64,000 bases of DNA from Escherichia phage W143 (MZ189262.1); one strand, 5' to 3'. Shown: positions 59,155 to 63,899, counted from the first letter of the stretch. Numbers and translations: made by a program. Notes: generated by a model not told the origin, from the letters alone.

Positions 59155-59181
59155 GTTATTCTCCTCTTAACTGATAGAAAA

Positions 59182-59211
59182 ATTATACCATAGTCAAGAG
59201 GAAAAGTAAAC
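59182..59211 (-). promoter_or_regulatory. T4-type early promoter
   Basis: GTTTAC 59211-59206, 18 bp, TATAAT 59187-59182. Confidence 0.7.
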
Positions 59212-59213
59212 AG

Positions 59214-59534
59214 TTATTCTTTAAATCTAATCAATTTATTCATAGACTTTGTAACTTCTGCACGAACCTCATGTAGGTTTTTGAGCTGTTCAAGACGCTG
59301 CTCATAGTAAGCAATTTCATCTTCTTCGAGACAGTCCTGTGAATCTTCTTTAAGATAACGTGCGTAGTCCTGGAAAGCTTTACGGACTACTTCTTGGAAG
59401 TCATCAAGGCTTTGAATTTTCTTAGGAGCGACAGATACACGACGAGGGGCAGTATAATACTCATAACCAAACCCTGCGCTTAATTGGGCCATTAATATTT
59501 TTCCTCTGGTTGGAACACAGCACGACAAGCCCAC
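59214..59534 (-). CDS. hypothetical protein
   Basis: 106-aa ORF. Confidence 0.5.
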
Positions 59535-60342: not shown

Positions 60343-60672
60343 TCAATTAGAAAATAAATTTATCCAAGATTGCTCTTTAATTAAAAATGGCTCAGAATCA
60401 TATGCCATTAAACTTTGGGTAATTAGTCCTTTAAAAGGCCCATCAATAAATTCCATGGTAAAATATGGAATTTTATTCATTAATCTTGCATTAGGAGCAG
60501 TGCACAAAACTCTGCATCCTTTGAATACGCCTTTTTGTAATTTGTATTGCTTAGGATAAAATTCGCTCAAGACGTTGTTATTTGCCAAAATTTCAAAATG
60601 ATTCACCAATTTATTTTTAATAGTTTTTGGCGAAAAATAAAGATATTCGAAAAGTTGCGTGTCTGTCATCAT
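60343..60672 (-). CDS. hypothetical protein
   Basis: track ORF trimmed to [10 protein letters not shown], abutting the upstream stop. Confidence 0.45.
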
Positions 60673-61208
60673 TGCATTCCGATTACGAAAAACTGCGGAC
60701 GAGTAATACCACCAATGCAACAATTACTATTGCAGCAGTGTTGTACAGTGTCAATATGGACGCTATAAATCTTATCCATATCAGGAGATTTAACAGGCTC
60801 ATCGATTATATACAAAATCCGCGAAAGCGATAAACCTCTGAACTTGCTTCCTTTATTACCGATAAAACTACGGACAGAATCGGTAAATAAACGAAAACGT
60901 ATATCATCATTAGAATAACGCGAAAATTCCTTTTTAATGTTATTTGCAGAAATTTTAGCGTAAGCTGAAGTATTAGAAAGAACAATAACTGTTCCACCGT
61001 CATACAACCAATTAGCGGCAAAATTAGTTACTGCAGTTGATTTACCGGATTGACGTCCACCATCTAGTCGAAGTGTGCAATACTGCTTAAGTAAGTCTTC
61101 AAATGGCGGGATATATTCGTTTTTACAAATTTCTTCTACTCTAGCATCAGAATGGTGTGTAAAAGCATTCATCAGGGATAGATAAGGACCAGTTAAAAAT
61201 GTTCTCAT
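60669..61208 (-). CDS. P-loop NTPase
   Basis: trimmed to MRTFLTGPY; Walker A GGRQSGKST, Walker B ILYIIDEP; track N-terminal extension lies in the repeat element. Confidence 0.5.
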   Translation of the reverse strand: MRTFLTGPYLSLMNAFTHHSDARVEEICKNEYIPPFEDLLKQYCTLRLDGGRQSGKSTAVTNFAANWLYDGGTVIVLSNTSAYAKISANNIKKEFSRYSNDDIRFRLFTDSVRSFIGNKGSKFRGLSLSRILYIIDEPVKSPDMDKIYSVHIDTVQHCCNSNCCIGGITRPQFFVIGMQ

Positions 61209-61224
61209 TTTATTCTCTCTAAAT

Positions 61225-61300
61225 TTGGGCCATTCCATGGCGCATGAATTGTCCATTTCTGTATTTACCCATTACCGCACTTGGGCTCGACCTTATTACA
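61225..61300 (-). repeat. about 75-bp intergenic repeat element, copy A
   Basis: about 80% identical to 61820-61895, including GGACAATTCATGCG and CGGTAAT blocks. Confidence 0.6.
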
Positions 61301-61448
61301 GGTTGGCGGGAATCCCTCACAGAATCATGAGGTCCAGCTTGTTCCCATGTTATTTGAATGTAAATATTTTTGCCTTAATACTTATACCAGTGTGGCTTCA
61401 TTAAAATTTTTTCATCGAGTCATTTTACCTCTCCAAGTAATTATGAAT

Positions 61449-61478
61449 ATACTATCACAATTTTAGGAGAAAGTAAAC
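61449..61478 (-). promoter_or_regulatory. T4-type early promoter
   Basis: GTTTAC 61478-61473, 18 bp, TAGTAT. Confidence 0.6.
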
Positions 61479-61480
61479 TA

Positions 61481-61783
61481 TTATTTACCTTTAATTACTT
61501 TAGCTGCTTCGATAGCCGCTTGCTGAAGGTCATCCATAGACATACCGAATTTAGAAGCAAAGTTATCAATTTTCTTTTCGACAGCATTCAAAGGCTTGGC
61601 CTGTTTACCTTCATTAGCGCCAGGAAGAGCGAGAATACGTTCTTTGTCAATATAAAGGCTTACAAGTTTCTTACGGTCTTTATCGGACAAATCATGAAAT
61701 GAATGGGCCTTTTTATTTATAGCGGCTTCTAATTTACCTGCACTCACTCGCGCTTCAGTAATAAATTCTTGATATGTTTTCAT
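61481..61783 (-). CDS. internal protein with capsid targeting sequence (IPII-like size)
   Basis: 100-aa ORF with N-terminal MKTYQEFITEA. Confidence 0.65.
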   Translation of the reverse strand: MKTYQEFITEARVSAGKLEAAINKKAHSFHDLSDKDRKKLVSLYIDKERILALPGANEGKQAKPLNAVEKKIDNFASKFGMSMDDLQQAAIEAAKVIKGK

Positions 61784-61819
61784 ATGTTTCCTTTAAATGT
61801 AAATAGTTTTATTCTTTAA

Positions 61820-61895
61820 GTTTGGGACAATTCGCACGCATGAATTGTCCGTTTCTATATTTATCTATTACCGGGTTCGAACTCGGCTTTATTAA
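61820..61895 (-). repeat. about 75-bp intergenic repeat element, copy B, with 9-bp perfect palindrome
   Basis: GGACAATTC-gcacgcat-GAATTGTCC hairpin; homologous to copy A. Confidence 0.6.
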
Positions 61896-62473
61896 GAATT
61901 ACCACGGGCTGCATTAGCAACGGCGTAAGCGTACTGAACATTAGCGTCTTTAAACGTACCTTTAGAGGTATCTAGTTCTGCCTTAAAGCCGCCTTTAGCC
62001 ATAACATCGGCAAATTCTTTACGGAAAGCCATTGCATCAAGACCTTTCCATGATGATTTGTGCTTAGCGAATTCAAGACCAGCGTAGTTGACAGCTTTAG
62101 CCAATTTATTATCAATGACCCATTTACCGGCTTTAGGCACAAACTTCGGGCCTTTTTGTTTAGAGAACAGTTTTAAATTCCAGCGACGAAGATCACTGTC
62201 GGCTTTAACAAAAGCTGCGTCTAAGTTACTAGCAACAACATCTTCAATATGAGCAAATTTAAGTCCGTCAACTTCAATATTTAAATCGGTACGCCAGCGA
62301 AGTCCTTCCCAAGCGAAAGCTTTAAAATCGGAAGCTTTTGTAGCTAAGTATCGTTCAATAGGGGCTGTTTTAGGGTCAAAGCCGTTTCCACCACGATAGT
62401 TCCACTCGTCCTTATTAATGCCTTTGGCCTTTACTACAGAAGCTTCAGCAATAAATTCTTGATACGTTTTCAT
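61892..62473 (-). CDS. internal protein with capsid targeting sequence (IPIII-like size)
   Basis: 193-aa ORF with N-terminal MKTYQEFIAEA. Confidence 0.65.
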   Translation of the reverse strand: MKTYQEFIAEASVVKAKGINKDEWNYRGGNGFDPKTAPIERYLATKASDFKAFAWEGLRWRTDLNIEVDGLKFAHIEDVVASNLDAAFVKADSDLRRWNLKLFSKQKGPKFVPKAGKWVIDNKLAKAVNYAGLEFAKHKSSWKGLDAMAFRKEFADVMAKGGFKAELDTSKGTFKDANVQYAYAVANAARGNS

Positions 62474-62499
62474 TTTTGTTCCTATTGTTTTAATTCATG

Positions 62500-62814
62500 T
62501 TATTCTTTAGGGAAGTTTTTAGAGTATGCGTCATAAAGTTTATTACCGATGCGTCGGAAAACTCTAGCTGCAAAACGGTTTTCAGGGTTTTTAATCATGA
62601 TTTGCATCATGTAAGTTCCTGCATCCGAAAGAGCTTCTTCATAGTACCCATTAATTTCTTTAAGAGTCCTACGTTTACCACCAGGACCATCAACAGTAAT
62701 TTTCCATTTACCTGTAGAAGTGCGGCTCGGTGGCTCAACTTGTTCAATCCAAATATAACCACCTTCAACGCGTTGGTTGGCGGATTCTGCAATAAATTCT
62801 TTATACGTTTTCAT
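62500..62814 (-). CDS. internal-protein-like gene with CTS
   Basis: 104-aa ORF with N-terminal MKTYKEFIAES. Confidence 0.6.
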   Translation of the reverse strand: MKTYKEFIAESANQRVEGGYIWIEQVEPPSRTSTGKWKITVDGPGGKRRTLKEINGYYEEALSDAGTYMMQIMIKNPENRFAARVFRRIGNKLYDAYSKNFPKE

Positions 62815-62844
62815 TTTTGTTTCCTTGTTTGTTTTGATAGAGTA

Positions 62845-62874
62845 ATTATACCATATTAATACTTAAGCGTAAAC
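62845..62874 (-). promoter_or_regulatory. T4-type early promoter
   Basis: GTTTAC 62874-62869, 18 bp, TATAAT 62850-62845. Confidence 0.7.
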
Positions 62875-62877
62875 CGT

Positions 62878-63138
62878 TTAAGCTTCACCGCCAGAAATAA
62901 TTCCGAAGTTGTTAAAATCGTATCCAATATCGTCAACATCTACTTTAGGACTTGCAGCAACATAAGCAATTTCACTACGTTTTGCATAGGTGTTGATTTC
63001 TTTACCATCACCACCTAAGAAAAAATACCCATTACGTTTTAATGAGCCAAAGTCTTCCGCATCACCAATGAAAGCTTTAACTTTAAATTTAGGACCTTTG
63101 GCATCTGCTTCAGCGATAAATTCTTGATACATTTTCAT
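62878..63138 (-). CDS. internal-protein-like gene with CTS
   Basis: 86-aa ORF with N-terminal MKMYQEFIAEA; directly downstream of denV. Confidence 0.6.
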   Translation of the reverse strand: MKMYQEFIAEADAKGPKFKVKAFIGDAEDFGSLKRNGYFFLGGDGKEINTYAKRSEIAYVAASPKVDVDDIGYDFNNFGIISGGEA

Positions 63139-63144
63139 TTTTCC

Positions 63145-63558
63145 TTAGTAAATTGATTTACCATAGTATTTGTACCAAGTAGGGCGTTGAGCAATTTTTT
63201 CATCTAAGCGAGCTTGACTTATCGCAATGGACGCTTCGGACGGGACATAATTATTACGAAATTCGACAGGGATGTCGGAAATATCCTGGACAGTCGTGTC
63301 CTTGATTTTGAAACCACGTTTCAAGCATTCAGCGATTAGCTCGATTTGACGTAAACGTAAAAATTCTAGTTTGTCGTAAAAGAATGTTACGTGACCTGTG
63401 CCTAAGATAAATGTTGGAGAGATTTTAAAATCCTTTACACGTTTACCGTTTTGAACATGTTTACGGACTGCACCAAATACGCGTGGTAATTCACGATACT
63501 CAGCCATAAGATGTTGGTCGGTCAGTTCAGAAACAAGTGTTAAATTGATACGAGTCAT
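63145..63558 (-). CDS. denV: endonuclease V (pyrimidine-dimer DNA glycosylase)
   Basis: start set at [12 protein letters not shown] (137 aa); recognisable as T4 DenV. Confidence 0.9.
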
Positions 63559-63585
63559 AATTTCCTCCAAGTAGTCGATGAATGT

Positions 63586-63615
63586 ATAGTATCAAAACCC
63601 TTGGAGGAAGTAAAC
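63586..63615 (-). promoter_or_regulatory. T4-type early promoter
   Basis: GTTTAC 63615-63610, 18 bp, TACTAT. Confidence 0.6.
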
Positions 63616-63617
63616 AA

Positions 63618-63899
63618 CTATTTTTCTGAAGCGCCTGAAATATATTTTTCAAGACGTTGTTTCATCAGCGAGCCGTTCTTAGCGATTTCTTCCGGTTTAT
63701 CGCACATACGCAACAAGGCTTCAAGCTTAACGATATCGCTGGTACGTTCAAATTTGCGAGTATCTATCTTACTAGCAAGTTCAGAAATACGTGCTAATAG
63801 ACTTTCGGCTTCAACCAAAGCTGCACCTAGCTTAGTTGCAAATGTGTCAGTAGCTTCGTTAAGAATAGATTCTGATAAAAATTCACTATATGTTTTCAT
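63618..63899 (-). CDS. internal protein with CTS (at the position ipII occupies after denV in T4)
   Basis: start set at [11 protein letters not shown] (93 aa). Confidence 0.6.

Follow-up and report, generated by a model that had tools for sequence, protein, structure and literature searches.

Two related segments of the internal-protein locus of a T4-like phage: a probable structured RNA element and a probable decayed recombination copy of it

The internal-protein (ip) locus of Escherichia phage W143 (MZ189262.1) contains two related intergenic segments, and the explanation that we favor overall, and consider probable, is that they differ in kind: the segment in front of vs.8 (copy A) would be a conserved structured RNA, with its functional part deduced from sequence comparison, and the segment between ipIII and ipII (copy B) would be a decayed patch left by recombination. 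As a repeat, the pair is an ordinary recombination product of a locus well known for its plasticity; of more use is the finding that one of the copies appears to belong to a widely conserved structured RNA.

The window, by which we mean the whole stretch of 64,000 nucleotides that was analyzed, is of Tequatrovirus (T4-like) identity: a megablast search with 60600-62600 retrieved 908 phage records, with T4 at ~92% identity. The genes of the locus are all on the minus strand. Their sense order in the window is ip-like gene, denV, two small ip genes, ipIII, copy B, ipII, early promoter, denV remnant, copy A and vs.8; in T4 it is e, ipIII, ipII, denV and vs.8. The genes and landmarks around the two copies are as follows.

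63618-63899, minus strand: ip-like gene
63145-63561, minus strand: denV, intact and of T4 type, upstream of the ip genes
62878-63138 and 62500-62814, minus strand: two small ip genes
61892-62473, minus strand: ipIII (internal protein III), directly upstream of copy B, stop codon at 61892-61894
61481-61783, minus strand: ipII (T4-type, 100 aa), the cassette gene flanked by the two copies, start at 61783
61448-61486, minus strand: T4-type early promoter GTTTAC-N17-TAGTAT, after ipII, identified by comparison with T4
61350-61423, minus strand: denV-allele remnant, between ipII and the element
60669-61208, minus strand: vs.8 (P-loop protein, 179 aa), start at 61208, the gene directly downstream of the element

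Compared with phage JE01, the remnant at 61350-61423 carries a 347-bp deletion between GACTCG direct repeats, and the early promoter at 61448-61486 formerly served the deleted denV copy. What is left of this second denV allele, which is of JE01 type and stands where T4 has its denV, is its Shine-Dalgarno sequence, ATGACTCG and the last 66 nt, and the allele of the window also carries a TAC-to-TAA change; phage TB004 (locus L011) has a JE01-type denV allele with a different internal deletion. In Pfam, the sole match of the vs.8 product was a weak one to AAA_14. Repeated T4-type early promoter units of the PeSL kind discussed below, GTTTAC-N17-TAGTAT/TATAAT with AATTGTGA stem-loop arms, were seen on the minus strand after ipII (61448-61486), before the 104-aa ip gene (62835-62878), before denV (63585-63623) and further downstream (59172-59215). 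Five ip-type genes also have their first ~30 nt in common (MKTYQEFI..., a capsid-targeting leader), at 61752-61783, 62442-62473, 62783-62814, 63107-63138 and 63868-63899; these 5' ends are direct repeats of 24-32 nt that could mediate ip gene exchange unaided.

An earlier reading of the DNA by sequence only had described two segments of ~75 bp, 61225-61300 and 61820-61895, as ~80% identical. MAFFT alignment bore this out, with ~80% identity over ~90 nt; the segments had been placed correctly and the true homology is slightly longer, extending on the gene-sense (minus) strand over 61216-61302 (A) and 61807-61894 (B), from TAATAA to GAATAAAA. An ungapped 58-nt repeat family gave 79% identity between A and B at a spacing of 596 nt, a degenerate 36-nt core pattern matched exactly these two sites of the window, with 0 expected from 100 shuffles, and the A-B local alignment scored 43.5 compared to 8.8 ± 1.4 (maximum 18) in 2000 shuffles. 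The placement in 5' leaders was likewise correct: A lies directly 5' of vs.8, and B lies between the ipIII stop and the ipII start.

The segment first described as copy A is the 3' two-thirds of an element of ~110 nt, and ~150 nt before vs.8 are near-constant whichever gene precedes them, be it T4-type denV, the second denV allele, Ip4 or ipIII. The element has the following parts.

61227-61335, minus strand: whole element in its Tequatrovirus short form (5' hairpin, closed core, 3' domain), a block conserved before vs.8, with homologues in other genera and families
61315-61332, minus strand: 5' hairpin P1, CCUCAU-N6-GUGAGG, with compensatory changes among relatives
61262-61313, minus strand: closed core including the closing helix P2, from covariance model R1 and P2 covariation
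61305-61307 paired with 61267-61269, minus strand: closing helix P2, with pairs C-G, C-G and G·U in copy A
61290-61303, minus strand: small core hairpin ACCU-GUAAUA-AGGU, one of two possible pairings
61228-61254, minus strand: quasi-palindrome of the 3' domain, GGACAAUUCAUG-CGC-CAUGGAAUGGCC, complementary at 9 of 12 positions and including the two conserved GGA motifs

Among 47 distinct sequences, the core follows a nearly invariant consensus of ~32 nt, ACCUG-N4-AAGGUC-N-AGCC-N4-6-GCGGUAA (N5 in copy A), whereas its flanks differ. The 3-4 nt before the core pair with nt 3-6 after it, and two positions of this closing helix were paired in every sequence: one as C-G (39) or G-C (8), the other as C-G (30), G-C (8), A-U (4), U-A (4) or wobble pairs. 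A third position was G·U, A-U, U-A, C-G or G-C. The P2 covariation score was 0.29 compared to 0.09 in shuffles, none of which (0 of 500) reached 0.29, and when the P2 partners were slid as a control, pairing fell from 86% to 20-50%. The same covariation was seen equally on 81 model hits. Because G·U pairs with a 5' G fit only the gene-sense strand, we took that strand to be the RNA strand. Model R1, a covariance model of the core built here, was run on the 64-kb window with filters off and found copy A alone at E<=10 (71.2 bits, E 3e-23); altogether it made 81 hits in 77 loci, none of them at a copy B. No Rfam 15 family overlapped the element, whether in the window (E<=10), in six loci (E<=1) or in another eight (E<=0.1). 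From covariation and strand we infer an RNA function, and copy A would represent Tequatrovirus in a conserved family of structured RNAs.

Inside the core, the small hairpin has a variable loop and an invariant stem, with the exception of L063b, in which an A-U pair has become G-C. Two pairings of the interior fit the few variants, one consisting of ACCU:AGGU plus G-C and C-G, and the other, from RNAalifold, of CUGU:GCGG plus GGU:GCC; on full-length forms RNAalifold preferred the alternative interior, without covariation. Since the core bases are invariant and do not discriminate between interior pairings, our firm claim is limited to the closing helix. The variants did not uphold a proposed long-range pairing of GUCC with GGAC. 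Hairpin P1 changes from CCUCAU/AUGAGG to CCUUAU/AUAAGG in FL08 and L046 and is shortened to CCUCA/UGAGG in L035, and its Vequintavirus counterpart occurs as CACAU-GACG-AUGUG and CUACG-GACG-CGUAG, with the GACG loop kept. The 3' domain would form two GGA-bearing hairpins; in the T4 group the conserved GGA motifs are 18 nt apart, with one in a hairpin loop, and long forms of the element conserve AUGGA and A[AUC]GGAA. We presume a resemblance of the two T4-group GGA motifs to CsrA sites, which is an idea and not a result. The structures of P1 and of the 3' domain are predicted from few compensatory changes, and template switching can mimic compensation.

Copy A might alternatively be protein-coding, either extending Vs.8 at its N terminus, as the reference annotation of T4 has it, or encoding a 33-aa protein of its own, as annotated in G4498 and T2, but we regard this as the least probable of the readings considered, and highly improbable. 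It is true that the frame over the element is open in T4 and fused to vs.8, that ATG and GVG-type (GTG) starts alternate, that two substitutions are synonymous in that frame, and that the 33-aa ORF is annotated in two records. However, in the window (by TAG) and in most phages the frame is closed before vs.8, FL08 and L046 have ATA in place of the start codon, matched by a compensating change across the hairpin, PhiZZ6 carries frameshifting +1 insertions, and the putative ORF is without a Shine-Dalgarno sequence. Furthermore, the long forms and the members outside the T4 group have no ORF in common, whereas the RNA helix covaries. Annotated coding sequence on the RNA core comprises T4 NC_000866 64854-64905 (L001 2171-2222), within the first ~110 nt of vs.8, so that the annotated T4 start of vs.8 falls inside the core, and the 33-aa hypothetical ORFs of G4498 (L009 3621-3722) and T2 (L014 2479-2580). 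Since the element frame is closed, frameshifted or absent in relatives, the vs.8 protein most likely starts at MRTFL (61208), and we suggest a correction of the vs.8 start in the reference genomes.

Copy B differs from this picture in most of its parts, which are the following.

61807-61894, minus strand: copy B, a diverged version of the element and the vs.8 leader that is truncated at its 5' end, aligned from the ipIII double stop TAATAA to GAATAAAA
61871-61886, minus strand: hairpin 1 (CCGAGUUCGAACCCGG / CCGAGTTCGAACCCGG), formed where the invariant core is mutated
61825-61850, minus strand: hairpin 2, a perfect 9-bp palindrome with an 8-nt loop

R1 gave no hit at 61807-61894 (E<=10, filters off) and no second hit at seven other copy-B loci (L002, L008-L013; E<=0.01). 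Copy B has neither the 5' hairpin nor a 5' strand for P2, its core is mutated and reads UUCUUAAUAAAGCCGAGUUCGAACCCGGUAA (also rendered AAAGCCGAGUUCGAACCCGGUAA), and the second GGA hairpin of A is replaced. A copy-B query retrieved 424 phage records, with at least 90% identity in only 15 of them (~13 phages, including JE01, Shfl2, G4498, ECML-134, VEc74 and TB004); 14 records matched the query at two places, and all others only through copy A upstream of vs.8. Where present, B always directly follows the ipIII stop and is itself followed by either ipII or an unrelated 157-aa Ip4 gene. Copy B is thus best seen not as a second working element but as a truncated, decayed duplicate that we infer to derive from the A region.

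How B arose can be proposed from its edges. Its sequence follows the T4 ipIII-ipII spacer through TAATAAAGC, then A from CGAG to GAATAAAA, and then the ip leader CTATTTACATTTAAAGG, and because both edges switch between T4 spacer or ip leader and A sequence, we read B as a patch. A stretch of ~85 nt, from the TAATAA of the core hairpin loop to the GAATAAAA of the vs.8 leader, would have been copied from the A region and inserted in the ipIII-ipII spacer by recombination on two microhomologies, TAATAARG (also the ipIII double stop) and AGAATAA..AAAA (also the ip leader), so replacing the early-promoter/stem-loop spacer of T4. Having arrived with neither the 5' hairpin nor both halves of the closing helix, it would then have drifted by ~20% and its core decayed. 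The A-to-B direction and the microhomology junctions are deduced from present-day sequences, and an alternative source of B would be a variant of the element that is absent from the sampled genomes. In G4498 and ECML-134 the middle of B is identical to A at 34-35 of 36 positions, which suggests later gene conversion.

The sequence-only reading had also raised the idea of RNA processing or translational control common to both leaders; we found no evidence for it. That both would be working copies of one cis-element, a processing site or translational operator co-regulating vs.8 and ipII, is in our judgment quite unlikely. Both copies do stand in 5' leaders, ~20-40 nt before a start codon, and their 3' 60 nt are well conserved, with 4 mismatches in 36 nt and only 2 in ECML-134 and G4498. 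Yet among the parts missing or altered in B are the invariant core, both the 5' hairpin and the second GGA hairpin, and a strand of the closing helix; its carriers number ~13 against over 400 records of Tequatrovirus, the spacer from which T4 and the majority of its relatives express ipII is of quite another kind, and the same copy B is found before ipII and before Ip4, which are unrelated ip genes.

The perfect 9-bp inverted repeat claimed for copy B is present, as GGACAATTC-N8-GAATTGTCC at 61825-61850. In copy A the same stretch is the quasi-palindrome GGACAATTCATG-CGC-CATGGAATGGCC, and in copy A of FL08 it is the perfect GGACAATTCATG-GCG-CATGAATTGTCC, with the center flipped. The loop of hairpin 2 in B reads ATGCGTGC in the window versus GCACGCAT in TB004, and ATGCGTGT in G4498 versus ACACGCAT in VEc74, so that it is inverted in TB004 and VEc74 relative to their nearest relatives. 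Perfected palindromes and flipped loops are marks of DNA-level template switching or recombination within hairpins, processes known from quasi-palindrome mutagenesis in T4. We propose that template switching at quasi-palindromes would have turned two stretches of B into perfect hairpins, one of whose loops flips between phages. The T4 rII work of Ripley reportedly described both quasi-palindrome templated mutation and small hairpin inversions; as in that system, imperfect inverted repeats are perfected here (copy B; copy A of FL08) and loops occur in both orientations (TB004, VEc74), but unlike in that system, what we describe is natural variation between phage genomes and not measured mutation events. 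Microhomology-anchored patching, the perfecting of quasi-palindromes and the flipping of hairpin loops are clearly illustrated in nature by this repeat.

With its two stable hairpins, B has a predicted energy of -17.6 kcal/mol (z = -3.2 compared to shuffles). In a scan for intrinsic terminators, neither hairpin had a U-tract behind it on the gene strand; read from the antisense strand, each runs into a T-rich tail and fits the terminator pattern. B might have been retained as a protective or terminator hairpin pair that stabilizes the 3' end of the ipIII mRNA or stops antisense transcription, taking over the stem-loop half of the replaced spacer. We consider this unlikely, even though the hairpins are stable, their antisense tails fit a terminator and they are kept in 8 of 8 B copies compared despite up to 10% divergence: a sense-strand U-tract is missing, no antisense promoter is known at B, template switching can create and maintain perfect palindromes without selection, and the B loop flips freely. 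As the two hairpins are kept in all ~13 phages, B may have a function of its own. Hairpin 1 (CCGAGTTCGAACCCGG, preceded by TTAATAA) resembles a T-arm, that at the 3' end of T4 rnaC (TTAATAACCGGGTTCGAATCCCGG; L079 ~1415-1440).

The interval from e to vs.8 is hyperplastic: denV, ipIII, ipII, Ip4 and other ip genes occur in it in at least 8 arrangements. The copy A element is the constant right-hand boundary in all of them, and B lies at the ipIII/cassette boundary. In the ip loci of other phages, A marks a cassette junction, the right-hand one, throughout, and B marks one in only ~13 phages. The related idea that the repeats mediate cassette shuffling held up in part: the locus is plastic, A stands at a constant boundary and Klebsiella phage W15-2 carries a chimera, but A and B are not equivalent and ipII/Ip4 exchange can be explained without B. 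In W15-2, ipII and a T4-type promoter lie between the resident long-form element and a second element that joins a T4-type 5' half to a different 3' half, which indicates a crossover inside the conserved core, with the element acting as a homology anchor. An intact element with a core near-identical between diverged phages would thereby offer a crossover point for moving ip cassettes, a role that is a by-product of its conservation and not its function, and that accounts for the fixed right-hand boundary of ip/denV cassette exchange between phages. A crossover between A and B in the window would delete ipII plus the intact A core, and the exchange of ipII and Ip4 can be explained without B, by the common ip leader and 5' coding repeats.

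Polymorphism of T-even ip loci has been reported (Repoila 1994, as cited in PMC2839356 and PMC4122927), and T4-like phages carry promoter-early stem-loop (PeSL) cassettes (Arbiol 2010, PMC2839356; Comeau 2014, PMC4122927), defined by a sigma-70-like early promoter, TTTACW-N17-TAYWAT in T4/PST (PMC4122927). Like PeSLs, the repeats described here are short conserved intergenic sequences at boundaries within a hyperplastic region, where small cassettes including ip genes undergo homologous exchange, and copy B occupies the place of a PeSL-type spacer. A promoter scan of the gene strand, however, found no promoter in 61216-61335 or 61807-61894; the TTTACA of the ipII leader is not followed by a -10 box at a distance of 16-18 nt, and by eye the MotA box and the late TATAAATA motif are absent from both copies, B having GATAAATA only in some phages and A having GGTAAATA. 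As neither copy carries a promoter, neither is a PeSL cassette. PeSLs also have a stem-loop next to their promoter; copy B has two stem-loops without a promoter, and the hairpins of copy A are part of the RNA element. Unlike PeSLs, moreover, the element owes its conservation to a structured RNA core and not to promoter boxes, and it is single-copy in most genomes and common to unrelated phage families. That the repeats are nonetheless PeSL-type mobile regulatory cassettes, excising and inserting intervening genes as mini-circles, predicted at 596 bp here, is very unlikely in our estimation. The hyperplastic locus with PeSL-like promoter/stem-loop units nearby (PMC4122927, PMC2839356), the stem-loops of B in place of the T4 PeSL-type spacer and the two elements flanking the ipII cassette of W15-2 would agree with it, but there are just two copies in the window, neither with a sigma-70-type, MotA-box or late TATAAATA promoter, an A x B crossover would remove the intact RNA core, and that core is conserved beyond the needs of a promoter cassette and present in phages without PeSLs.

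The structured RNA that we favor for copy A extends well beyond the window. A blastn search with the A block retrieved 1118 phage records, and in several T4-like genera, including T4 itself, the element always stands before vs.8-like genes. It occurs in Dhaka-, Jiaoda-, Winkler- and Karam-type relatives of T4, and in Klebsiella Jiaodavirus, Dhakavirus and Erwinia Winklervirus it always lies between ip/denV genes and the vs.8 homologue. Outside the T4 group it was found in Vequintavirus, in Pylas-type N4-like Klebsiella phages, in ~150-kb phages and in a 45-kb group including phage Ivi, the Pylas-type and ~150-kb members by pattern scans; in the more distant phages, Jiaodavirus, Dhakavirus and Winklervirus among them, the similarity is confined to the middle part of the A block. 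No match to the element was found by blastn in 5,426 E. coli genomes, and the exact core pattern was absent from 185,579 species genomes. Co-stranded tRNA genes lie 45-720 nt from the element in Vequintavirus, the L029/Pylas group, L060 and L073, and the element is also on the same strand as its flanking genes. In L074 a promoter-like site stands ~60 nt upstream of the element and an intrinsic terminator ~60 nt downstream, and L073 has a terminator-like hairpin by eye, for which the terminator scan was negative. In Vequintavirus and Ivi a strong sigma-70-type promoter comes after the element; because this promoter intervenes, the element is not the leader of the next gene there. A comparison of adjacent proteins found no neighboring protein common to the element across lineages.

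The absence of a common neighbor protein, the tRNA-adjacent sites and the contexts with their own terminator or promoter point to a self-contained RNA whose partner is supplied by the host. The intact element is most likely a small stable or processed RNA that would engage a host factor common to enterobacterial hosts, and not a vs.8-specific leader; in the T4 group it would be cut from, or act within, an early polycistronic transcript. A cis-regulatory leader would also fit, the element always abutting the vs.8 start in T4-like phages. More specifically, and tentatively, at a little short of an even chance, we suggest that it represents an undescribed class of small structured RNA that has spread horizontally among unrelated virulent enterobacterial phages, namely T4-like, rV5-like, N4-like, ~150-kb and 45-kb ones, and acts on a host factor, for instance by serving as its decoy or sponge; engagement of a host factor is suggested because the element is conserved across phage families that share only hosts. 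The element is accordingly a testable candidate for a host-acting phage RNA, and were this true, T4 itself would carry such an RNA, hidden under the annotated start of vs.8.

Among known phage RNAs, T4 rnaC and rnaD (species 1 and 2) are likewise structured, ~120-140 nt long, of obscure function and co-oriented with tRNA genes, and the element too lies in tRNA clusters outside the T4 group; unlike rnaC/rnaD, it occupies a different site in T4, and by eye it has no core sequence similarity to them. As a conserved, covarying intergenic phage RNA, often near tRNA genes, it also resembles the unnamed candidates of a phage screen (PMC10690425) and Rfam ROOL/GOLLD, but unlike ROOL/GOLLD it is much smaller and has no Rfam 15 match. 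It could be one of the roughly 10,000 unnamed candidates of that large screen (PMC10690425). The literature search found no description of the element, its core strings were absent from full-text search, and literature on the T4 transcript map and vs.8 yielded nothing useful, so that the element is apparently undescribed and unannotated even in T4. Several likenesses to other RNAs were set aside: a hammerhead ribozyme agrees in junction strands of 1, 3 and 7 but differs in sequence and has them in the wrong order; for SRP Alu UGUAAU, rrn boxA and the 16S rRNA 3' end (GUAACAAGGU, CCUGCGGU), the positions that match either belong to the variable loop or are arranged differently; and ToxI, CRISPR repeats and GlmY/GlmZ have no real similarity.

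We also made several minor observations around the element. About 21 Vibrio phage records have weak core matches, and 18 "Campylobacter phage" records (e.g. MG065661.1) match the Vequintavirus form of the element across variable flanks, for which reason their host labels look doubtful. A short Vequintavirus repeat, CCCCTTAGAGGGCTTGATAGTGCACC, was seen at L021 ~1420-1450 and at L044 ~1100-1130 and 1230-1260, flanking the element on both sides in L044. Long inverted repeats, CACAACAGGTAAGAGCATTG ... CAGTGCTCTTTCCGTTGTG, bracket short segments in L029, L054, L056, L065, L070 and L072; these segments adjoin tRNA genes in Pylas-type and related contigs, and one has a tRNA-like T-arm. In phage Ivi (L023 1553-1700), TTGACA-N17-GATACT directly after the element would drive a transcript of ~70 nt that starts with AUCACCUCCU, which we take to be identical to the anti-Shine-Dalgarno end of 16S rRNA, and ends in a hairpin that is terminator-like by eye and was not called by the scan. 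Two intact tandem elements occur at L050 360-523, L063 5091-5253, L068 9018-9181 and L066 827-963, in some Karam/Winkler-type phages and one 45-kb contig, and the compensatory changes in the second copy indicate that duplication of the element recurs and can yield working paralogues.
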